Positions 45,336-54,843 are shown, numbered from the stretch's first letter. The stretch is 64,000 nt of DNA from Truepera sp. (GCA_965218435.1 CBDCKW010000009.1:2240001-2304000); one strand, 5' to 3'. A program made the numbers and translations. The notes: generated by a model not told the origin, from the sequence alone.

Positions 45336-45368
45336 TTCAACCTACCTTTAACATTCACCGCGTATTTT
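45336..45368 (+). promoter_or_regulatory. Regulon promoter P1 (direct repeat plus -10)
   Basis: TTCAACC-TACC-TTTAACA-N9-TATTTT. Confidence 0.75.
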
Positions 45369-45516
45369 TTCCCTTGTCCGAGCCGACCGGCCCGGTCATC
45401 TCTTGAGAGGATACCCAGCATTTACCAACTGTAAAACGAGTGAGCGTGCATTCCAGCCCAGCCACCGCCCGCGCTCACCCGAACCCCCAACCGGCGATGA
45501 GAGAGAAAGAAGTCTT

Positions 45517-46335
45517 ATGCAAACAGCCGCGCGTCAACCTGCTTTTGGTAATGTCACTGTGCAAGGGGTACTCAGCCGAGTTCCCGAAGTCACCCTTATC
45601 TTCTGGATTATCAAAATTTTATCTACTACCGTCGGCGAGACCGCCGCCGACTTTTTAGCCGTTACGCTAAACTTCGGTCTAGTAGGTACATCAACCGTGA
45701 TGGGCATTCTGCTCGTCATCGCGCTCGCCAATCAGCTCCGGTTAAAACGCTATGTCCCGGCGAGTTACTGGACGGTCGTGGTGCTGACGAGTATCGTCGG
45801 TACGCTCGTTACCGATTACCTTGTAGACGACCGCGGCGTTACTCTAGTTACTACCACGGTCATCTTTTCAGGAATTTTACTCGCTATCTTCGTTACTTGG
45901 TACGCAAGGGAAAAAACCCTCTCGATGCACTCGATTACGACCTTACCGAGAGAGGCTTTTTACTGGGCCGCGATTCTTTTTACGTTCGCGCTGGGTACGG
46001 CGTCGGGTGACCTGATTGCCGAGAGCTTCGGCTTGGGTTACGCCCTCTCGCTTGTGCTCTTTGCTAGTCTGATTGCGCTGATTGCCGTGGCGCACTTTGC
46101 GTTCAAACTTAACGGCGTATTAGCTTTCTGGCTGGCGTTTATCTTGACCCGCCCACTCGGAGCTTCAACGGGTGACTGGCTCTCGCAACCCGTAGCTGAC
46201 GGGGGACTCGGTTTAGGAACGGTCACGACGAGCTTTATCTTCCTGGCCGTTATCGTCAGTTTAGTAGTTTTTATCACGCTGAGGCAGCGGCGGCAGGGGC
46301 CACCGGTGGCAGAACCGGAACCGGCTCAGGTTTAG
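45517..46335 (+). CDS. COG4705/DUF347-like membrane protein
   Basis: SRVPEVTLIFWIIKILSTTVGETAAD, REAFYW, TFALGTASGD, ILTRPLGAS.GD. Confidence 0.9.
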   Translation: MQTAARQPAFGNVTVQGVLSRVPEVTLIFWIIKILSTTVGETAADFLAVTLNFGLVGTSTVMGILLVIALANQLRLKRYVPASYWTVVVLTSIVGTLVTDYLVDDRGVTLVTTTVIFSGILLAIFVTWYAREKTLSMHSITTLPREAFYWAAILFTFALGTASGDLIAESFGLGYALSLVLFASLIALIAVAHFAFKLNGVLAFWLAFILTRPLGASTGDWLSQPVADGGLGLGTVTTSFIFLAVIVSLVVFITLRQRRQGPPVAEPEPAQV

Positions 46336-46360
46336 CGTAGTAACCTTCTCAGGTTTGCTC

Positions 46361-46392
46361 GACCGACGCGCATTTCGACGCGTCGGTTTTTT
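46361..46392 (+). terminator. Rho-independent terminator
   Basis: GACCGACGCG-8 nt-CGCGTCGGTT followed by T-tract. Confidence 0.8.
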
Positions 46393-46551
46393 ATGGGTTA
46401 TAGCTCGAGGCTGAGGGCACAGCTACGGATTTTGGTGCGTTTTTAGCAGGTTTGGCGCTCGTAACCTTCATCATTAAAGGTTTTGCTGATGAGGACAAAT
46501 CCCAGAAATGAAGCTGATTATTAAGCTAATGACCGGCTCGTGAGCGTTTCT

Positions 46552-46584
46552 CTCCACCCCCCTCCAACATTCACCCGCTACCTT
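46552..46584 (+). promoter_or_regulatory. Regulon promoter P2
   Basis: CTCCACC-CCCC-TCCAACA-N9-TACCTT. Confidence 0.75.
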
Positions 46585-46626
46585 GACCCTAGCCAAGAGG
46601 ATTTCACCTTTGGCGAAAGGAGCAAG

Positions 46627-47145
46627 ATGAAGCAGCACCTCAAAACCCTCGTGCTCGGCGGCACTCTGGTCGTCGGCTCGCTAGGCACAATGGTCGCCCT
46701 GGCTCAAACTTCGGGCGGCGCGGCCACGCAAACGCAGGGTCAGACACAGCAGCCCGCATCTACCGGCTCGATTTCCTTACCTCAGGAAAATCAGGGCGAA
46801 GATGCGGAAGCCGCCGCCTATATGAGCATGGCGAAGGTCACGTTGGGGCAGGCAGTCAAGGCGGCCCAGACTTCTCTAGGCGTAACTACTGCGCCGAGTT
46901 CAGCCCAGCTCGGTAACGAAAACGGCTCGCTCGTCTGGGAAGTCGTGATCGGTCAGCAAAGCGTTGCAGTTGATGCTGGCAACGCTAAGGTACTCCAGAC
47001 TCAGCCGATTAACGCGCCCGAAATGGCCGACAACGGCGAAAATTACGATCAGGGACAAGACGGCGAAAGCTACGATCAGGGCGGGCAGGGCAACGCTCAA
47101 CAAGAACAAGGCGGCGAGTCCAACAACATGGAGGACGGCAACTAG
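46627..47145 (+). CDS. Exported PepSY-like protein with acidic tail
   Basis: Signal peptide ending ALA-Q; AKVTLGQAVKAA..LGNENGSLVWEV..VAVDAGNAKVL; AAGGAG RBS. Confidence 0.82.
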   Translation: MKQHLKTLVLGGTLVVGSLGTMVALAQTSGGAATQTQGQTQQPASTGSISLPQENQGEDAEAAAYMSMAKVTLGQAVKAAQTSLGVTTAPSSAQLGNENGSLVWEVVIGQQSVAVDAGNAKVLQTQPINAPEMADNGENYDQGQDGESYDQGGQGNAQQEQGGESNNMEDGN

Positions 47146-47177
47146 GCCGACCGACAGTCCCTCAGCGTTTGACACCG

Positions 47178-47205
47178 ACCCCCTCTAATCAGGGGGTTTT
47201 TCTTT
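47178..47205 (+). terminator. Rho-independent terminator
   Basis: ACCCCCT-CTAATC-AGGGGGT followed by TTTTCTTT. Confidence 0.75.
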
Positions 47206-47238
47206 GAGCCGCCGTAAAAATGCGCGGACGCGCGACGC

Positions 47239-47271
47239 TTCAACCTCCCTCCAACATTCGGCGCTTAACGT
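47239..47271 (+). promoter_or_regulatory. Regulon promoter P3
   Basis: TTCAACC-TCCC-TCCAACA-N9-TAACGT. Confidence 0.8.
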
Positions 47272-47312
47272 AAGCGTGTTGCCGGGGTCAGACCGGCATA
47301 AAGGAGTTGACG

Positions 47313-47900
47313 ATGAAACGTCCACTAACCGTCTATTTGCTGACCGGCACGCTCACACTCGTCGCAGTGTCGCCCGCCTTAGCCCAAACGAACGCACCTA
47401 TCCCGGCGCAGCAGCAACCCGTAGCGCCAGAGGTTAATCCACCCGGGGATATTCCTGACACGCAAGCGTTTGTGACCTACCGCTCACCTCAAGGGTTTCA
47501 TTTAGAGGTGCCTGAAGGCTGGGCGCGCTCGAGTACAAAACAAGGCGCACACTTTGCCGACAAATACGGCAGCGTGGACGTGCAGGTAAGTACGGCAAAA
47601 AATGCGCCGACTGTCAGCAGTGTTCAGCAAACGCAGGTCGCCGCGCTCATGGCCTCGAACCGCGCCGTTCAGGTAAGTCAGGTGCAAGCCGTGCAGCTTC
47701 CGAGTGGGCAGGCCGTGCGGATTGACTACGCCTCAAACTCGGCCCCAAACCCGGTAACGAACAAGCAGATTCGGCTCGAGAACGCCGACTACCTCTACTA
47801 CCAAAACGGTGAACTCGTCACAGTGACGTTTTCTGCACCTTACGGGGCCGACAACGTTGATCAGTGGCGTTACATGTCCGAAAACTTCGGCTGGAACTGA
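47313..47900 (+). CDS. Exported protein, PsbP/Mog1-like fold predicted
   Basis: Signal peptide; NPPGDIPDTQAFVTY, VPEGW, PYGADNVDQW. Confidence 0.75.
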   Translation: MKRPLTVYLLTGTLTLVAVSPALAQTNAPIPAQQQPVAPEVNPPGDIPDTQAFVTYRSPQGFHLEVPEGWARSSTKQGAHFADKYGSVDVQVSTAKNAPTVSSVQQTQVAALMASNRAVQVSQVQAVQLPSGQAVRIDYASNSAPNPVTNKQIRLENADYLYYQNGELVTVTFSAPYGADNVDQWRYMSENFGWN

Positions 47901-47901
47901 G

Positions 47902-48597
47902 ATGGACACCTCTGCTAGTACGACAGCAGTTTTAGCAGCGCACGACCTCTACCGCTTTTTCCACACCCCTGAAGCGGAAACGCTCGCCCTGCGCGGCGTC
48001 AGCTTAGAGCTTCAGCGAGGCGAAACCGTCGCGGTGATGGGGCCGTCCGGGAGCGGCAAATCTACGCTGCTCGCGTGTCTAGCTGGTCTCGACGAACCTG
48101 ACGGCGGTCACGTCGAGCTCTTAGGTGAGCGGCTAACCCGCCGCCCTGAAACCGTGCGGGCCGGTTTACGGGCCAAGCACATCGGGATTTTGCTCCAGTC
48201 GGGTAACTTGCTCGGGCACCTAAGCGTCGAGGAAAACGTGCAGCTCTCCCTGCAGTTGGCGCACCAACCCAGCCGGGAGCGCATCACCGAACTTTTAGAG
48301 GCGGTCGGATTACGAGAGCGCCGCGCCGCCTACCCCGCCGAACTTTCAGGTGGGGAGACGGCGCGGGCAGGGCTCGCGGTCGCGCTCGCTGCCGACCCCG
48401 CCGTACTGTTAGCCGACGAACCGACCGGCGAAGTAGACGCGGAGACTGAAGGGCTGCTTTTAGAGCTGCTCGAGCACCGCAGACAGCAGGGTTACACCGC
48501 CCTGATTGCCACCCACAGTCCCGCGCTGGCGGCGCACGCCGACCGCACGGTTCACTTAAGAGATGGGAGCATCACCCATGACCAGACCTATAACTAA
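47902..48597 (+). CDS. ABC ATP-binding protein (LolD/MacB-like)
   Basis: GPSGSGKST, LSGGE, LLADEPTG, ATH. Confidence 0.95.
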   Translation: MDTSASTTAVLAAHDLYRFFHTPEAETLALRGVSLELQRGETVAVMGPSGSGKSTLLACLAGLDEPDGGHVELLGERLTRRPETVRAGLRAKHIGILLQSGNLLGHLSVEENVQLSLQLAHQPSRERITELLEAVGLRERRAAYPAELSGGETARAGLAVALAADPAVLLADEPTGEVDAETEGLLLELLEHRRQQGYTALIATHSPALAAHADRTVHLRDGSITHDQTYN

Positions 48598-49279
48598 ATC
48601 TGTGACGAAGCCTCTCGTTTCCGTGCGGCAAGCAGGCCGGGTCTACGATCAGGGCCACAAACCCGTGACCGCCCTCGAGTCCGCCTCGTGTGACGTTTAT
48701 CTGGGGGCGCGGATTGCACTCGTCGGCCCTTCGGGAAGCGGTAAATCTACATTGCTGCACCTGATGGGGGGGCTCGAGTCCCCTACTTCGGGAAGCTTGG
48801 CTTGGCCCGCCCTCGACGCCCGTAAACCGCTCCGCCCCGAACAGGTGGCGTTTGTTTTCCAAACCCCCAGCCTGATTCCATCTTTAAGCGTCGTGGAAAA
48901 TGTCGAACTGCCCCTCTTGCTGGCTGATAAGGGCGACGCTCGCTCGGCAGCTTTGGCGGTGTTGGAACGGCTCGAGCTGGCCGCACTCGCCGACAAACTC
49001 CCTGAAGAACTCTCCGGCGGGCAGGCGCAGCGCGTCGGGGTGGCGCGGGCGCTCGCCTATGCGCCCAAGCTTGTCTTGGCCGATGAACCGACCGGACAGC
49101 TCGACGGGCCGACCGCCGCGCACCTCTTTGATGTGTGGCTGGAGGAACTCGAGGATACAGAAACCGCCCTCGTCGTCGCAACCCACGACCTGCGCGTCGC
49201 CGAAAGACTCGGTGAGGTGTGGCAGATGAAGTTTGGGCGGCTCGAGACTGCGCCCCACTACGAGGAGGCGTTCATATGA
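48578..49279 (+). CDS. ABC ATP-binding protein (second subunit)
   Basis: GPSGSGKST, LSGGQAQR, VLADEPTGQLD, ATHD. Confidence 0.95.
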   Translation: MTRPITKSVTKPLVSVRQAGRVYDQGHKPVTALESASCDVYLGARIALVGPSGSGKSTLLHLMGGLESPTSGSLAWPALDARKPLRPEQVAFVFQTPSLIPSLSVVENVELPLLLADKGDARSAALAVLERLELAALADKLPEELSGGQAQRVGVARALAYAPKLVLADEPTGQLDGPTAAHLFDVWLEELEDTETALVVATHDLRVAERLGEVWQMKFGRLETAPHYEEAFI

Positions 49280-51930
49280 CCCTGCTGTGGCTTAGGGGAC
49301 TCGTTAAACGCCGTCCGGTACGGCTTCTAGGCACCGTCACCGGAATCGCGCTAACGGTCGCGCTACTCATGTCGTTAGCCGCTTTTATCGTCTCCGGCTC
49401 GGCAAGCATGACGCGGCGGGCGGTGGCGACCGTTCCGGTAGACTGGCAGGTTCAGCTCACACCGGGAACTACACCTAAAACAGTTCTCGCGGCGCTTCGT
49501 CAGGCGACGCCCGTACAGACCACAGCGCAAGTTGGCTACGCGCAGACTGCGGGGCTCGAGGCTCAAACCGGTGGGACGGTGCAAACCACCGGGCCGGGTA
49601 AGATTTTAGGCTTGCCGCCCGCTTATTTTTCCAAGTTTCCCGGACAGGTGCGTTCGCTCGTCGGCTCGCTTCAGGGTGTGCTCATCGCGCAGCAGACAGC
49701 GGCGAACCTGCACGCCACGGTCGGTGACACGGTAAAAATCAGGCGTGTAGGACTGCCGCCTGTAGCGGTCAAAGTCGCGGGCGTCGTCGAACTCCCCAAC
49801 GCCGACTCGATGTTTCAGGCCGTCGGTGTGCCACCCGGCAGCGCCCCGCAAGCCCCACCGGACAATGTGGTGCTGCTCCCGGCGGCGCAGTGGCACACCC
49901 TCTTTGACCCGCAAGCCACCGTAAGGCCCGATTCGGTGCGGACACAGCTCCACGTGCGGCTCGGGCACGGCATGCTGCCGAGTGACCCGAACGCGGCCTA
50001 TCTGGAGGTGAGCGGTCGAGCCAGAAACCTCGAGGCCCGCATCGCTGGCAGCGGGTCGGTCGCCGATAACTTAGCAGCCCGCTTGGACGGCGCACGCGGT
50101 GACGCCATCTACGCCCGCGTGTTATTTCTCTTTTTAGGGACGCCGGGGGCGCTGCTCGCGGCTCTCTTGACGTTGGCAGTTACGGCGTCGGGTGCGGCGC
50201 GTAGGCGGCAAGAACAGGCGTTGTTACGGACTCGGGGAGCCTCGAGCCCACAACTTTTACGTTTAGCAGGCTTTGAAGCTCTTGCGGTAGGCGTAATAGG
50301 TGTCATTTTCGGTTTTTTACTCGCGTTTATCGCGTCGCGGGCACTTCTCGGGACGAATCTGTGGACGGCTGCGGGTGTCACTGTTTGGCTCGTCACCGCC
50401 GCGCTTATCGGTTTTTTACTCGCGGCTGCTGCGGTCATGCTCCCGGCGTGGCGAGCCCTTCGCGGCGAAACCGTCACCTCAGCCAGAGCGGTCGTCAGTC
50501 ATGCCCACACACCTCTTTGGGAACGGCTCTACCTCGACGTCATTTTTCTGGCGCTGGCAGGCTTGGTGTTCTGGCAAACCGCGAAGAGTGGCTATCAGGT
50601 CGTGCTGGCCCCTGAAGGGGTCGCGCAGACCTCGGTGAACTACAGCGCCTTTATCGCCCCAGTCTTTTTGTGGCTCGGCGCGGGTTTGCTCACGCTGCGG
50701 TTGTGGAACCTGCTTTTAGGACGAGGCTCGCGTCTCCTTACCAGCTTGTTTCGTCCGGTGGCACATAAGCTCTCTGGTACGGTGGCAGCCTCTTTGGGGC
50801 GGCAACGGCGGCGGCTTGCCGGAGGCGTGGTGCTGGTTGCCCTGGCCTTTTCGTTCGCGGCGTCTACGGCGGTCTTTAATACGACCTATAACGGACAATC
50901 CAGGGTGGACGCCCTGCTCACCAACGGGGCCGATGTCACCGTCACGGGGACAACGGCAGCTCCCGCGGGCACAAAACTCGCGGCCTTCGCTGCACTTCCC
51001 GGCGTCCAAGCCGCCGCACCTATGCAACACCGCTTCGCCTACGTCGGCAACGACCTGCAAGACCTTTACGGTATTAGCCCTACCCACATCGGTGAGGCCA
51101 CAGTGATGTCGAACGCCTACTTTAAGGGCGGCAACGCGCAGGCGACGTTAGGTGCGCTCAGCAGTCATCCTGACGGCGTATTGGTCTCTGAAGAGACCGT
51201 CCGGGACTTTCAATTGCAGGTCGGCGACCGGCTCAATTTGCGCTTGCAAAACGCTAAAGACAACGCCTATCACACGGTTCCCTTTACCTTCGTGGGGGTC
51301 GCCAGAGAGTTTCCGACTGCGCCGAAAGATTCATTTTTGGTGGCGAACGCAGGCTATATCGCGCAGCAGACGGGCCGGGGCGCAGCTGAGGTCGTGCTCT
51401 TAAAAACGCAGGATGCAGCGGGCGTCGTGAAGGCAGCAGGGCCGCTGGTGCGTTCCCTACCCAGCGCGAAGGTCTCGAGTCTCGCTCAAGCGCAGAGTTT
51501 AATCAGCTCGAGCCTCACCGCTGTTGACCTTAAGGGGCTGACGCGGCTCGAGCTGACTTTTGCCTTTATCCTGCTGGCAGGCGCTTCCGGGCTGCTGCTG
51601 GCGTTAGGTCTTGCCGAACGGCGGCGCACCTTTGCCATCCTTAGCGCCCTCGGCGCAAAGTCGGCGCAACTCGGTGCGTTCTTATGGAGTGAAGGGCTGT
51701 TCGTGCTGCTAAGCGGCGCGGTCGTCGGGTTATTAACAGGTTTCGGCGTCGCCGAGATGCTCGTCAAGGTCTTGACCGGCGTGTTCGACCCGCCACCTGA
51801 AGCACTCGCCGTCCCGTGGTCGTATCTGCTCTGGCTGCTCGTCGCCGCAGCTGGCGCAACGGTACTGGCGATCAGCAGCGCCCGCATCACCTCAAGGCAG
51901 CCGGTCGTGCAGGCACTCAGAGATTTCTAG
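49276..51930 (+). CDS. FtsX/MacB-type ABC permease, tandem domain
   Basis: Two TM bundles with large extracytoplasmic loops; RRRQEQALLRTRGAS and ERRRTFAILSALGA motifs. Confidence 0.92.
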   Translation: MTLLWLRGLVKRRPVRLLGTVTGIALTVALLMSLAAFIVSGSASMTRRAVATVPVDWQVQLTPGTTPKTVLAALRQATPVQTTAQVGYAQTAGLEAQTGGTVQTTGPGKILGLPPAYFSKFPGQVRSLVGSLQGVLIAQQTAANLHATVGDTVKIRRVGLPPVAVKVAGVVELPNADSMFQAVGVPPGSAPQAPPDNVVLLPAAQWHTLFDPQATVRPDSVRTQLHVRLGHGMLPSDPNAAYLEVSGRARNLEARIAGSGSVADNLAARLDGARGDAIYARVLFLFLGTPGALLAALLTLAVTASGAARRRQEQALLRTRGASSPQLLRLAGFEALAVGVIGVIFGFLLAFIASRALLGTNLWTAAGVTVWLVTAALIGFLLAAAAVMLPAWRALRGETVTSARAVVSHAHTPLWERLYLDVIFLALAGLVFWQTAKSGYQVVLAPEGVAQTSVNYSAFIAPVFLWLGAGLLTLRLWNLLLGRGSRLLTSLFRPVAHKLSGTVAASLGRQRRRLAGGVVLVALAFSFAASTAVFNTTYNGQSRVDALLTNGADVTVTGTTAAPAGTKLAAFAALPGVQAAAPMQHRFAYVGNDLQDLYGISPTHIGEATVMSNAYFKGGNAQATLGALSSHPDGVLVSEETVRDFQLQVGDRLNLRLQNAKDNAYHTVPFTFVGVAREFPTAPKDSFLVANAGYIAQQTGRGAAEVVLLKTQDAAGVVKAAGPLVRSLPSAKVSSLAQAQSLISSSLTAVDLKGLTRLELTFAFILLAGASGLLLALGLAERRRTFAILSALGAKSAQLGAFLWSEGLFVLLSGAVVGLLTGFGVAEMLVKVLTGVFDPPPEALAVPWSYLLWLLVAAAGATVLAISSARITSRQPVVQALRDF

Positions 51931-52105
51931 GGAGGTTAGAGAGGTTAGGCGCTTGAGAAAGAATTCTGGACGCAGAAGTTGCTGGCGCAAGTAAGAAACC
52001 GGTGTCTGGCGTGCTCGAGCCTTACCGACACAGGCGCAGGTCAGCGCGGCTTAGTCTTGGGGTAACCTTGACGTAAGTTCGTCGCAACAAACTTGGCTCT
52101 CACAT

Positions 52106-52138
52106 CTCAACCTTCGTTTAACTTTGGGGCTGTACGCT
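52106..52138 (+). promoter_or_regulatory. Regulon promoter P4 (upstream of pap2-RR-HK)
   Basis: CTCAACC-TTCG-TTTAACT-N9-TACGCT. Confidence 0.75.
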
Positions 52139-52200
52139 GTCTTTGGGCCGAAAGCCGACTCAGACTTAACCTTGACTTGGCCTCAGAACCGAGGGTTGCC

Positions 52201-52851
52201 GTGACCACCTTACGAAAATATCTTCCTCACCTGAGCGGTTCGCTCCTGATCTACTGGGGTGCGCTACTGGCAGCACTCTTTTTGTTCGGGCAGTTTGCCG
52301 GTGAGGTTTACGAAAAAGAGGGATTTTTCTTCGACACGCCCGTTCTGAACTGGCTGGCGGCTCATCAAACCCCCTGGTTGGTCGGTCTGGCGCAGGCCCT
52401 GAGCACCTTTGGTGGGCCTCCAGTGTTGGGAGGTGTTGCGGCGGTGGCGGTGCTAGGGCTGTGGTTTGGGTTGCGCGAGTCTCGAGCCGCCCTCTTTTTA
52501 GCCGTAAGTTTAGGTGGGGCGATGCTCTTAAACGTGTTGTTCAAGCTTTTTTTCGCCCGTGTCCGCCCCGACCTGTCGCAACACCTCACCCCGGCCCCCG
52601 GTTACTCGTTTCCCAGTGGGCACGCGATGGGGAGTGCGGCGTTCTTTCTGGCCGTCTTTCTGGTGGTCTTTCACCTGTTTCCGCGCTGGCGCATCCTAGC
52701 CGGGGTGCTGGGCGTCCTGTTAACGCTCGGTATCGGGGGCTCGAGGCTCGTGTTGCAAGTTCACTATCCGTCGGATGTGCTGGCGGGGTGGGCGCTCTCG
52801 GCGGCGTGGGTCTTAGGGGTGAACCTCGTTTATGCGCGTACTCGTCGTTGA
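52201..52851 (+). CDS. PAP2-family membrane phosphatase
   Basis: KLFFARVRP, SFPSGHA, SRLVLQVHYPSDV; GTG start behind GAGGG. Confidence 0.95.
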   Translation: MTTLRKYLPHLSGSLLIYWGALLAALFLFGQFAGEVYEKEGFFFDTPVLNWLAAHQTPWLVGLAQALSTFGGPPVLGGVAAVAVLGLWFGLRESRAALFLAVSLGGAMLLNVLFKLFFARVRPDLSQHLTPAPGYSFPSGHAMGSAAFFLAVFLVVFHLFPRWRILAGVLGVLLTLGIGGSRLVLQVHYPSDVLAGWALSAAWVLGVNLVYARTRR

Positions 52852-53488
52852 AGATGACCGGGGTATCGGCGACCTCGTGTGCGACGACCTGCGCGAGCAG
52901 GGCTACGCGGTGGACTGGGCGCAAGATGGCGATGAGGCGTTAGGACTTTTGGCAAGCTTTCCCTATGACCTGGTGGTCTTGGACCTGATGCTGCCCGGTC
53001 ACAACGGCTTTGAGATCGTCGAACGCTTGCGCGGCGGGGGTCAAAAGGTGCCAGTCTTGATGCTGACTGCCCGTGACGGCGTAGACGACCGGGTCAAGGG
53101 GCTCGAGCTGGGCGCGGACGACTACCTGGTCAAACCCTTTCATCTGACTGAGTTGCGAGCACGGGTTCGGGCGCTCCTACGGCGCTCACAAGGTGAAGCG
53201 AGCAACCAGATGAACGTCGGGCGGCTCGCGCTCGACGTGGCGCAAAAACGCATCTGGTTTGCCGGAAATGAGGTGCGGCTTTCAGGCCGAGAGTACACGG
53301 TGCTCGAGTTTTTGGCCCTCAATGCCGGGGGCTACTATACGAGAGACACGCTGTTAGAACACGTCTGGCCGGGAGACACCAGCGTTGACCCGCGCACGGT
53401 AGACACCTACATCCGCTACCTGCGGCGCAAATTAGGTGATGAAGTCATCGAAACCGTGCGCGGTCTGGGCTATAGGTTTAGAGGGTGA
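52832..53488 (+). CDS. OmpR/PhoB-family response regulator
   Basis: LVVEDD, VLDLMLP, GADDYLVKPF, IETVRGLGY. Confidence 0.97.
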   Translation: MRVLVVEDDRGIGDLVCDDLREQGYAVDWAQDGDEALGLLASFPYDLVVLDLMLPGHNGFEIVERLRGGGQKVPVLMLTARDGVDDRVKGLELGADDYLVKPFHLTELRARVRALLRRSQGEASNQMNVGRLALDVAQKRIWFAGNEVRLSGREYTVLEFLALNAGGYYTRDTLLEHVWPGDTSVDPRTVDTYIRYLRRKLGDEVIETVRGLGYRFRG

Positions 53489-54843
53489 CGCTCCGGCTGC
53501 GGCTGACCCTCTTTTATACGCTCTTGGTTGCGTTGGTACTGGCCGTGAGCGGGGTAGGGCTGCACGTGCTGCTCGCCCGTGGTCTCTACCGCAGTCTCGA
53601 CGCCAGTTTGCAACAAGCTGCCAGTTTGCTCTCGGGTTTTATGGAGCAGGAGAACGGCAAACCTCAGCTAAAACCTGAGAGCGAGATCGTCCCACAGCTT
53701 TCCTCGGATTTGGTCGCTGTCTTGGTCGGGTCGAACGGGCAAGTCCTCGATAGCCTGGGGCGCTTGCCGGAGCCCCTACCGCGGGTACAGGCGGGCCTCT
53801 CAACTCAGCGAGGCTGGCGGGTTTGGAGTGAGCCCATTCAGGGGGCAGCCCTGCAAACCTTACAAGATACGCGCAGCATCGCTGAAAGCGTCAGGCGCTT
53901 CGACCTCAGCTTTTTGGTGTTAGCGCCGCTGGCGGTGCTCCTGGCGTTCGGCTTGGGCTACCTCTTTTCCGGTCAGGCGCTCACCCCCGTGCGGCACATG
54001 ACGGACGCGGCGCTCGAGCTGGCCAATCGGCGGGCGTGGGGCGAGCGGTTACCCGAACCCCAAAACCAAGACGAGTTATGGCGCTTGTCGCAGGCGACCA
54101 ATACGCTGCTGGCGGCGCTTGCCGACGTGATCGAGAGCGAACGGCGCTTTACCGCCGACGCCGCCCACGAACTCCGCACGCCCCTGACCGTGTTGCGGGG
54201 CAGGCTCGAGCAGGCGGTCGAAAAGACTAAGGGGAACAGTGCCCAACCCGCTCTCAAAGCGGCTTTAGCTGCCGGTGACGAGCTTTTGGTACTGGTTGAA
54301 AAACTCCTTTTGTTGGCCCGCACCGAAGCGGGGCAGGGCTTTCATTTGGAAACTGTTGCGCTCGACGAAATCGCTTTTGACGTCGCTGAGCTGTTGCGCC
54401 CGCTTTTCGACGCCAAGGGCCTGGGGCTCGAGCTACACCTCCCGGAAGAAGTCCAGGTCGAGGGCGACCGGGTGGCGCTGGGGCTGCTGGTGCGTAATCT
54501 ACTGGAAAATGCGCTTAAATTTACCCCAGCCGGTCATGTTGGCGTACGGGTCGAAAGGCGGCAGGACAAGGCTTATTTGCACGTTTGGGACGGTGGCCCA
54601 GGAGTTCCAGCCGAGGCGCTGGGGCATCTCTTTGAGCGGTTTTACCAGGTAGATGTCCGTCATCGGCAGCTGGGCAACGGGTTGGGGTTGGCCCTCGCCC
54701 AGAGTATCGCATCTTGGCATGGGGGCACGCTTGAGGCTCACAACCGCTCTGAAGGGGGCGCGGTGTTCGTACTCGAGCTACCTGCTGGCAACACCGGTCA
54801 TACCCCCCGACCCGTTTCTAAACTTGTACGCGTACCTTTTTAG
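53485..54843 (+). CDS. Sensor histidine kinase (HAMP-HisKA-HATPase)
   Basis: Two TM segments; ADAAHELRTPL, NLLENALKF, DGGPG, GLGLA. Confidence 0.97.
   Translation: MTLRLRLTLFYTLLVALVLAVSGVGLHVLLARGLYRSLDASLQQAASLLSGFMEQENGKPQLKPESEIVPQLSSDLVAVLVGSNGQVLDSLGRLPEPLPRVQAGLSTQRGWRVWSEPIQGAALQTLQDTRSIAESVRRFDLSFLVLAPLAVLLAFGLGYLFSGQALTPVRHMTDAALELANRRAWGERLPEPQNQDELWRLSQATNTLLAALADVIESERRFTADAAHELRTPLTVLRGRLEQAVEKTKGNSAQPALKAALAAGDELLVLVEKLLLLARTEAGQGFHLETVALDEIAFDVAELLRPLFDAKGLGLELHLPEEVQVEGDRVALGLLVRNLLENALKFTPAGHVGVRVERRQDKAYLHVWDGGPGVPAEALGHLFERFYQVDVRHRQLGNGLGLALAQSIASWHGGTLEAHNRSEGGAVFVLELPAGNTGHTPRPVSKLVRVPF

Follow-up and report, generated by a model that had tools for sequence, protein, structure and literature searches.

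Four Promoters Sharing One Putative Response-Regulator Box in an Envelope Gene Module of Truepera sp.

Introduction

In the Truepera sp. assembly GCA_965218435.1, positions 45336 to 54843 of a 64,000-nucleotide stretch (CBDCKW010000009.1:2240001-2304000, hereafter the window, from whose first letter positions are counted) hold nine genes in four transcription units, all on the plus strand, and ahead of each unit stands the same promoter-like element. Which protein reads this element, and what do the genes behind it do for the cell? The sequence-only reading of the window had proposed that the OmpR/PhoB-type response regulator encoded in the last unit activates all four promoters and so ties three uncharacterised proteins to one envelope-stress or metal-stress response. 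The reading that we favour, and hold to be probably correct, is that the module forms a complete two-component regulon in itself, under positive autoregulation and of the mmf or PepSY–two-component kind, which would protect the recycling of undecaprenyl phosphate under metal or envelope stress.

Promoter Boxes and Their Conservation

The four elements (promoter 1, 45336..45368; promoter 2, 46552..46584; promoter 3, 47239..47271; promoter 4, 52106..52138) do share the 7-4-7-9-6 spacing that had been claimed for them, each consisting of a direct-repeat box and a −10 hexamer, with predicted transcription starts at 45375-45376, 46591, 47278 and 52145. The conserved unit is longer than first stated, namely YYCMACH-N4-TYYAACWTT-N7-TAnnnT. 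If the start is taken six bases after the −10, it is a purine at 33 of 38 sites and the base immediately ahead of it is a pyrimidine at 34 of 38. The repeat has an 11-bp period, lies over the −35 region and keeps a fixed distance to the −10, which is the arrangement typical of OmpR/PhoB-type regulators, and no sigma-70 −35/−10 pair was found at the four box places.

The rarity of the motif held up as well: strict, box-only and loose regular expressions each match only these four places on the two strands of the 4.8-Mb genome. As the expressions were derived from the four sites themselves, this count is partly circular, and we therefore relied on a leave-one-out test, in which a matrix built from three sites was scored against the fourth: 3, 5, 3 and 4 genome positions, counting the training sites, scored at least as high as the site held out, so that at most one outside site outranks it. 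A 20-site matrix, whose training set includes the four window sites, gives these 33.8–42.8 bits and the next genome site, C9:60440, 24.0 bits; with this matrix no further strong site appears in the genome, and hence no wider regulon is seen. An artefact of chance or composition was rejected, the pattern having 19 hits in 81 genomes against one for a reversed-pattern control.

In all five close loci the box is retained ahead of the same genes while the flanks diverge (three sites in L001, four each in L085, L086 and L087, one in L088), as had been expected of a functional element. In the alignments the conservation is centred on the box, the −10, the ribosome site and the terminator stem. Inserted genes carry their own box in L085 (a secreted acidic peptide) and L087 (a membrane protein); the BacA gene inserted between permease and PAP2 in L001 has none at threshold. 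A close permease was found in only one of five same-genus genomes. Three further loci, L002–L004, match the permease at 30–32% in the same order without PsbP gene or box, and were excluded from all counts. The word ACCTTGAC near promoters 2 and 4 was dropped as a candidate element; it is not found in the first 36 bases past the start in L086 and L001.

Regulator Helix and Box

The response regulator (52832..53488, recognition helix at about residues 188-201) has the receiver and winged-helix domains of the OmpR/PhoB type and is accompanied by its cognate kinase. Promoter 4, at 52106, heads its own operon and is predicted to be autoregulatory; in L166 and L167 the box stands directly ahead of the regulator gene. 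A search with this protein over 251 genomes of the phylum matched 26 of them at E 1e-75, and 20 regions around 32 non-self matches, mostly the best-scoring, were taken on regulator similarity alone; the matrix used to scan them had no training sites beyond those of the window and the five loci close to it. In the 20 loci the regulators are of two helix types, the window type 'TVDxYIRY' (9) and the variant 'SLDxYISR' (11). A site of 28.9–35.0 bits stands at the head of a nearby unit in 7/9 'TVDxYIRY' loci, whereas the window box is found in 0/11 'SLDxYISR' loci (best score 15.8 bits), a comparison that does not amount to 20 trials because a single split probably underlies the two helix types of the Deinococcota. 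Instead, 9 of the 11 variant loci carry GCAACC-N4-YGCAAGG in the same geometry at 28.3–36.5 bits; one of the remaining two has a weaker variant box, and the contig of the other stops before the promoter.

The pairing recurs within single genomes and across cargoes. G172 holds one locus of each helix type, each with its matching box, and L178 combines the cargo of the window with the variant helix and the variant box. In the loci with the window helix the boxed units start with PepSY or encode unrelated secreted proteins. On two Thermus plasmids with the window helix type the repeat is the top site at a unit head (16.8 and 13.0 bits, the next best sites having 1.6 and 4.6 bits); the closest named relatives of the regulator sit on Thermus plasmids, which makes the Deinococcota the probable phylum of the organism. 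The residues that change between the two helix types presumably correspond to Thr194, Val197 and Arg201 of PhoB. In PhoB these three residues contact bases (PMC3973317). The pattern was found in 8 of 81 family genomes, and five of the seven others besides our own have a close regulator; in one, G264, the boxed genes lie 380 kb away from it, so a regulon of this kind can be dispersed. The genomes compared are kin, and their counts are not independent of one another. Judged from these comparisons, the box appears to track the regulator and not the cargo. The claim that the encoded regulator reads the four boxes is thus upheld in its comparative part (conservation, boxes at inserted genes, a box that changes with the helix), and it is very probable that the cluster's own regulator is the reader.

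The loci compared contain a number of further arrangements. L188 (G264:C14, 1670-8750, minus strand) has another FtsX-type ATP-binding cassette (ABC) transporter, a secreted protein, PepSY and another secreted protein with three window-type boxes. L167, L171 and L195 combine, behind the same box, tandem regulator pairs with long secreted proteins that reach no Pfam cut-off (one has a weak fibronectin-III match). Under the variant box, L174–L178 and L183 have a gene for a YncE-like beta-propeller between those for PepSY and PAP2, and L176 also has one for a polysaccharide deacetylase there. A gene with its own box lies behind the kinase at L165 10440-11450 (ApbE-family flavin transferase), L190 3695-4681 and L196 2657-3183. 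A second regulator-kinase pair, of helix class 'KVVDVYVS', adjoins the first in L174–L178, L183 and L166; this class also drives the Deinococcus plasmid copies.

Distant Copies

The gene for the PsbP-fold protein of unit 3 has 2,255 relatives at E 0.001, 34 plasmid records among their locations. In the best 80 of at least 510 genome loci an ATPase gene follows it in 80/80 and the permease is present in 75/80, four of the five misses being contig ends; DUF347 was found in 46, a regulator-kinase pair in 50, PAP2 or BacA in 31, DedA-PAP2 in 10 and PepSY in 3. For scale, DUF347 and PAP2 are estimated at about 0.4% and about 1% per 20 kb, from the one DUF347 gene and three PAP2 hits in the 4.8-Mb genome.

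The window box is not a universal signal of this cargo: its matrix has 12 hits of at least 15 bits in 156 distant loci (2.2 Mb), none of them within 400 bases upstream of a module gene. Among 83 distant loci with distinct regulators other boxes follow other helices, with patterns read from the loci in which they were counted, which speaks for caution: TTAC-N6-GTAW occurs in 28/32 'ETHISR' loci versus 0/27 'SNAxxxLIH' loci, a CTAA repeat in 21/27 'SNAxxxLIH' loci versus 1/32 'ETHISR' loci and a TCAT repeat in 11/13 'NVIDVYI' loci, cross-class counts being 0–5. Two Deinococcus plasmids carry this cargo with a third regulator and have STATACC-N4-YTTTACC-N9-TAnnnT-like sites at four and three promoters, before PepSY, the PsbP gene, DedA and BacA. 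A quick permease tree has 60 rows, one of which (L087) is mislabelled through a frameshift; on it the regulator class changes 15 times, the minimum being 5 and the shuffled mean 31.5, so the labels are clustered; its starred branches force at least four changes for each of two large regulator classes. As far as these sequences tell, the cargo travels between phyla and appears to have come under a variety of regulators, every one of them with a box of its own in one geometry.

In Deinococcus aquaticus pDATS02 (L187 10842-14796) a Tn3 transposase gene cuts the permease short. In L034, L095, L097, L159 and L022 the module lies beside conjugation-like genes, as judged from translations, which suggests an integrative element. 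Two clusters of small secreted-looking proteins, L143:7294-7806 (29 loci, without Pfam family) and L015:14680 (19 loci, DUF1344), often come after the permease in Proteobacteria.

Proteins of the Module

Pfam bears out most labels of the sequence-only reading: four DUF347 repeats, two ABC ATPases, a permease with two FtsX and two MacB_PCD domains, PAP2, an OmpR-type regulator and a histidine kinase. The label PepSY-like fares less simply, since the protein itself has no Pfam match and 12 of 14 members of its alignment match PepSY. Similarly, the PsbP-like protein lacks a Pfam PsbP match, and it is its structure model that resembles PsbP structures.

Unit 1 encodes the DUF347 membrane protein (45517..46335; 272 residues, four repeats, eight long helices). 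Its helices and invariant residues (Lys33, Glu41, Asp45, Asp100, Asp165, Arg212, Asp220) would suit a secondary transporter of a charged substrate, lipid phosphate and metal alike. Compared with the translocase families DedA and DUF368, the only Pfam family matched was DUF347. Foldseek gave nothing for the fold at E 0.001 and the best VIA Z of 7.6 equals the helical-bundle background, which is not proof of a new fold. L085 has a second, divergent DUF347 gene; upstream of it (267-2425) are encoded two secreted proteins, one Dps/ferritin-like and the other long and matching none of the families tested. Unit 2 encodes the PepSY-like protein (46627..47145), small and secreted, with a single PepSY and an acidic tail (18 D/E, 5 K/R). 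The claim that these two units end in their own terminators is supported by intrinsic terminator-like hairpins at 46361..46398, with a U tract, and 47177..47208, the stem of which is kept in relatives; they stand first and third in a list of 22 terminator-like hits. The same scan found no terminator between the permease and PAP2 genes, and for this reason unit 4 may be read through from unit 3.

Unit 3 starts with the PsbP/Mog1p-fold protein (47313..47900; 195 residues), which has a signal peptide and, by eye, no lipobox. Its model (predicted local distance difference test, pLDDT, 86) has a best Foldseek E of 5e-7, template-modelling scores of 0.61/0.75 and 17% identity, and thus shows the PsbP/Mog1p/DcrB fold; relatives by fold are LpqN, DcrB and chaperones of membrane helices. 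A structure-atlas search returned unnamed look-alike clusters and one cluster with 53% PsbP. ATPase 1 (47902..48597, LolD/MacB-like) and ATPase 2 (48578..49279, LolD-like) follow, both with intact motifs by eye (Walker A, signature, Walker B and H-loop in ATPase 1); they are fused in some relatives. The duplicated permease (49276..51930; 884 residues, about 10 hydrophobic segments, two extracytoplasmic domains) has no solved relative by sequence (best E 0.01). FtsX and MacB_PCD domains and LolD/MacB-like ATPases place the transporter in the Type VII (FtsX/MacB) class, below the equivalog cut-offs of LolCDE, MacB, FtsEX and ADOP. Complex prediction hints faintly that the PsbP-fold protein may bind the permease: the score was 0.48 versus 0.00 for the best control (runs 0.22–0.49), with at least 93% of contacts agreeing between runs and a partner pLDDT of at least 82. 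The mark used is reached by 116/157 solved and 2/215 mismatched pairs, and the passes at or below 0.60 comprise only 18 solved pairs together with both mismatched ones.

Unit 4 encodes the PAP2 phosphatase (52201..52851), a candidate undecaprenyl-pyrophosphate phosphatase, the regulator and the kinase (53485..54843), which has two membrane helices and an external sensor domain of about 110 residues with acidic residues. The regulator scored below curated cut-offs for PmrA (208.7/330), PhoB (208.3/296) and CopR (200.2/279), and orthology to PmrA, ColR, PhoB or CopR/CusR was rejected on missed cut-offs and differing published boxes. A second PAP2 gene, C9:3143896-3144543, is 71% identical to that of the module and has no box nearby in the genome-wide scan. 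The module is flanked by an ornithine-cyclodeaminase-family gene and a NUDIX gene, and no transposon was seen there.

Comparison with Known Systems

The sequence-only reading knew of no characterised system of this full composition. For five of the nine genes there is a precedent, as the mmf cassette of Tn6048 encodes a PepSY protein, an undecaprenyl-pyrophosphate phosphatase, two DUF347 proteins, a secreted protein and a two-component pair (PMC4914505); in Cupriavidus metallidurans and on pMOL98 and pHB44 the genes are mmfA (PepSY), mmfB (PAP2-type), mmfC1/C2 (DUF347) and mmfRS (OmpR-type pair) (PMC4914505, PMC12029693). Pb and Zn induce the cassette, whose function was still called unknown in 2025 (PMC12029693); plasmids with mmf genes gave higher tolerance of bacitracin in two cases out of three, the gene being only tentatively assigned (PMC4914505). 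The window too holds PepSY, PAP2, DUF347 and a two-component pair. Compared with L186, a C. metallidurans locus mmf-like by gene content, it shares 54% identity in DUF347, 46% in the regulator and 29% in PAP2, and the promoter of L186 has the same 7-4-7-9-TAnnnT geometry with a CTAAG-type box. The helix class of L186 (MmfR-type) differs from that of the window and also serves this ABC cargo in Proteobacteria. The PepSY link to mmf is weak (hhalign probability 72%, E 3e-5). Whereas mmf has two DUF347 genes, mmfD and eamA, the window has one DUF347 gene and no other protein match to L186 at E 1e-3; it adds the PsbP-fold protein, the ABC transporter and four boxed promoters, and lacks Tn6048. Because five of nine genes are already in mmf, only the ABC/PsbP addition and the promoter code are new.

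In DbfQRS of Vibrio cholerae a PepSY protein binds its kinase, and the system is autoregulated and answers membrane damage (PMC12714742). The window resembles it in a small secreted PepSY protein co-inherited with an OmpR-type pair, and departs from it in that five genes lie between the PepSY gene, which has its own promoter, and the regulator, more than the four of a DbfQRS-like arrangement; in the relatives L165, L166 and L173 PepSY does stand within four genes of kinase or regulator. Moreover, DbfR alters hundreds of genes, while the regulon of the window is local, with four sites. The module thus works like mmf and DbfQRS and is a strict member of neither. UzcRS of Caulobacter and UipRS-UipA of Microbacterium are metal-responsive pairs driving secreted and membrane proteins (PMC8963506); their box symmetry and regulator class are unlike those of the window, UzcR acts genome-wide, and its site CATTAC-N6-TTAA resembles the TTAC-N6-GTAW of the 'ETHISR' loci and not the window box. 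ColRS, PmrAB and PhoBR share the 11-bp-period direct repeat, a winged-helix regulator and envelope-modifying targets (PMC2689224, PMC3973317). The half-sites of the window are unlike those of PmrA (CTTAAT/CCTAAG) and the ColR consensus. Type VII ABC transporters with periplasmic partners include LolCDE-LolA, YbbAP-TesA and BceAB, with FtsX/MacB permease domains and LolD-like ATPases; the window system differs from these in its two distinct ATPases, fused double permease and PsbP-fold partner.

In the literature searched, which covered few subscription journals and no supplements, no title dealt with the module or the box, and supplementary motif or chromatin immunoprecipitation tables could bear on the novelty of the box; nor was a publication found there for COG4705 or for PsbP with an FtsX ABC and a response regulator. 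A local autoregulated regulon with an 11-bp repeat is textbook logic. New are the link of a secreted PsbP-fold protein to an FtsX-type ABC with two ATPases, and the four separately boxed promoters. The mmf-like family gains exact predicted promoters and a putative binding site, and two unstudied families, DUF347 and the PsbP-fold ABC partner with its over 2,200 relatives, become tied to undecaprenyl-phosphate recycling genes. The natural set of helix-box pairs in one promoter geometry should be useful for a recognition code of OmpR-type regulators, and such pairs may be usable as orthogonal switches in Deinococcus and Thermus.

Mechanism and Alternatives

We propose that the signal for the kinase is a stress outside the cytoplasm, most likely an excess of divalent metal or damage to the envelope, and that the phosphorylated regulator would bind as a head-to-tail dimer to the repeat at about −39 to −22. 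The repeat would replace the −35 element, and the regulator would bring the housekeeping sigma factor to the −10 lying 9 bp downstream, so that four transcripts go up together; the geometry is observed, the pairing of regulator and box comes from comparison and activation from what is known of the PhoB family, by analogy with which a regulator that reads these boxes is very likely to activate. PAP2 would make undecaprenyl phosphate again from the pyrophosphate, DUF347 may serve the same handling of lipid carrier or metal as a membrane transporter, the acidic PepSY protein may bind metal or feed back on the kinase, and the two-ATPase ABC with its PsbP-fold partner may act on the external side of the membrane, extracting or handing over hydrophobic or metal-lipid cargo. 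Metal or envelope stress is a likely trigger, and it fits the neighbours PAP2, BacA and DedA and the mmf induction data. PAP2 and BacA enzymes begin lipid-carrier recycling, and DedA and DUF368 are candidate translocases, some of them fused to PAP2 (PMC9876793).

The same regulon could instead serve direct metal detoxification, with DUF347 or the ABC exporting Zn or Pb, phosphate freed by PAP2 precipitating metal at the surface and the PepSY and PsbP-fold proteins binding it, lipid-carrier recycling being incidental. This has been put forward for the UppP+DUF347 operons of Frankia, which go up under lead (PMC4531530), and agrees with the induction of mmf by Zn and Pb (PMC12029693) and with uranyl binding by the PepSY protein UipA (PMC8963506). 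The Deinococcus aetherius copy is flanked by a cation diffusion facilitator (CDF), ArsR and a divalent cation transporter, five of the invariant DUF347 residues are membrane acids (E41, D45, D100, D165, D220), and an OFeT iron/lead permease cluster occurs in 13 loci. Yet the recurring neighbours BacA, DedA, DedA-PAP2 and GT2-GtrA are lipid-carrier genes, and FtsX/MacB-type ABCs are not known to pump cations. In C. gilardii, moreover, the presence of mmf was unrelated to growth with Cd, Co and Zn (PMC12029693). Detoxification as the whole job seems rather doubtful to us; between the protection of the lipid carrier and direct handling of metal the balance tips modestly to the former. Uptake of metal, namely iron, draws on the same OFeT neighbours and on the mmf-bearing plasmid pHB44, which helped growth under Fe and V limitation (PMC4914505), a phenotype of the whole plasmid, and one assigned only in a tentative way. 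The ABC comes without a solute-binding protein and belongs to the LolD/MacB class, not to a class of importers, and uptake is accordingly very unlikely.

As to the reader of the repeat, its AAC core is like the −35 elements of extracytoplasmic-function (ECF) sigma factors, and an alternative sigma factor or a global factor might be considered in place of the adjacent regulator. The genome has 15 further regulator hits, and two genomes hold single boxes with no regulator found: G009 (67% complete), with a boxed PepSY gene, and G103, whose one match looks stray, lacking both a close regulator and a credible gene downstream. Still, the two loci of one genome differ in box type, each following its local helix, none of the 15 other regulators shows the window helix by eye, there is no other strong site in the genome and TAnnnT is of the housekeeping type; we give such a reader hardly any credence. 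Another possibility is that the regulator binds the box and represses, with stress lifting the repression, as a protein bound over the −35 region could block polymerase. Against this stand the lack of a sigma-70 pair at the four places, the 9-bp spacing to the −10 that is constant across different box sequences, as polymerase contact would require, and the precedents DbfQRS and UzcRS, which are activators (PMC12714742, PMC8963506), and repression appears most improbable.

Returning to the autoregulated lipid-carrier regulon, several observations weigh against it, the two regulator-less boxes just described among them. The PAP2 protein misses the NCBIfam undecaprenyl-pyrophosphate-phosphatase cut-offs, and the alignment of the kinase sensor domain has by eye no invariant His or ExxE motif. 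The two window-helix loci L168 and L172 miss the matrix (19.1 and 3.6 bits), their repeats having been noticed by eye only afterwards, one with an 8-bp spacer. In L001, the closest genome, the DUF347 gene is reduced to its end and its promoter is lost, and among the best 80 of at least 510 loci, 34, including short ones, showed no DUF347. The cargo is served by regulators from several subfamilies (CopR-like, PmrA/QseB-like), so the signal need not be shared. Finally, only two of the four window promoters pass the 5' hairpin mark (z below −1.5), promoters 1 and 4 having weak hairpins (z −0.5 and +0.9).

A bolder version, to which we attach a small probability, would make the module a mobile lipid-carrier rescue kit, with DUF347 as a third undecaprenyl-phosphate translocase family beside DedA and DUF368, the PsbP-fold protein and two-ATPase double permease as a Type VII ABC of a kind not yet described, which releases undecaprenyl pyrophosphate from bound metal or peptide or passes lipid cargo to a dedicated periplasmic carrier, and at least five regulator-box pairs in one geometry.

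Leaders of the Transcripts

A hairpin at the transcript start (z below −1.5 by mononucleotide shuffles) was found at 24/38 sites versus 5/37 upstream controls. That of promoter 3 is kept in relatives despite stem changes. The 5'-terminal hairpins ahead of the ribosome site at 46591-46615 and 47278-47300 keep their structure and not their sequence across genera; they are possible stabilisers of mRNA. The 142-nt DUF347 leader (45375-45517, and in L085, L086 and L087) has a conserved stem in which GAGTGAGCG pairs downstream; as one of 18 pairs shows a double change among four sequences, no claim of structure is made. A riboswitch in this leader was rejected, the one sub-threshold hit of Rfam falling inside ATPase 1.

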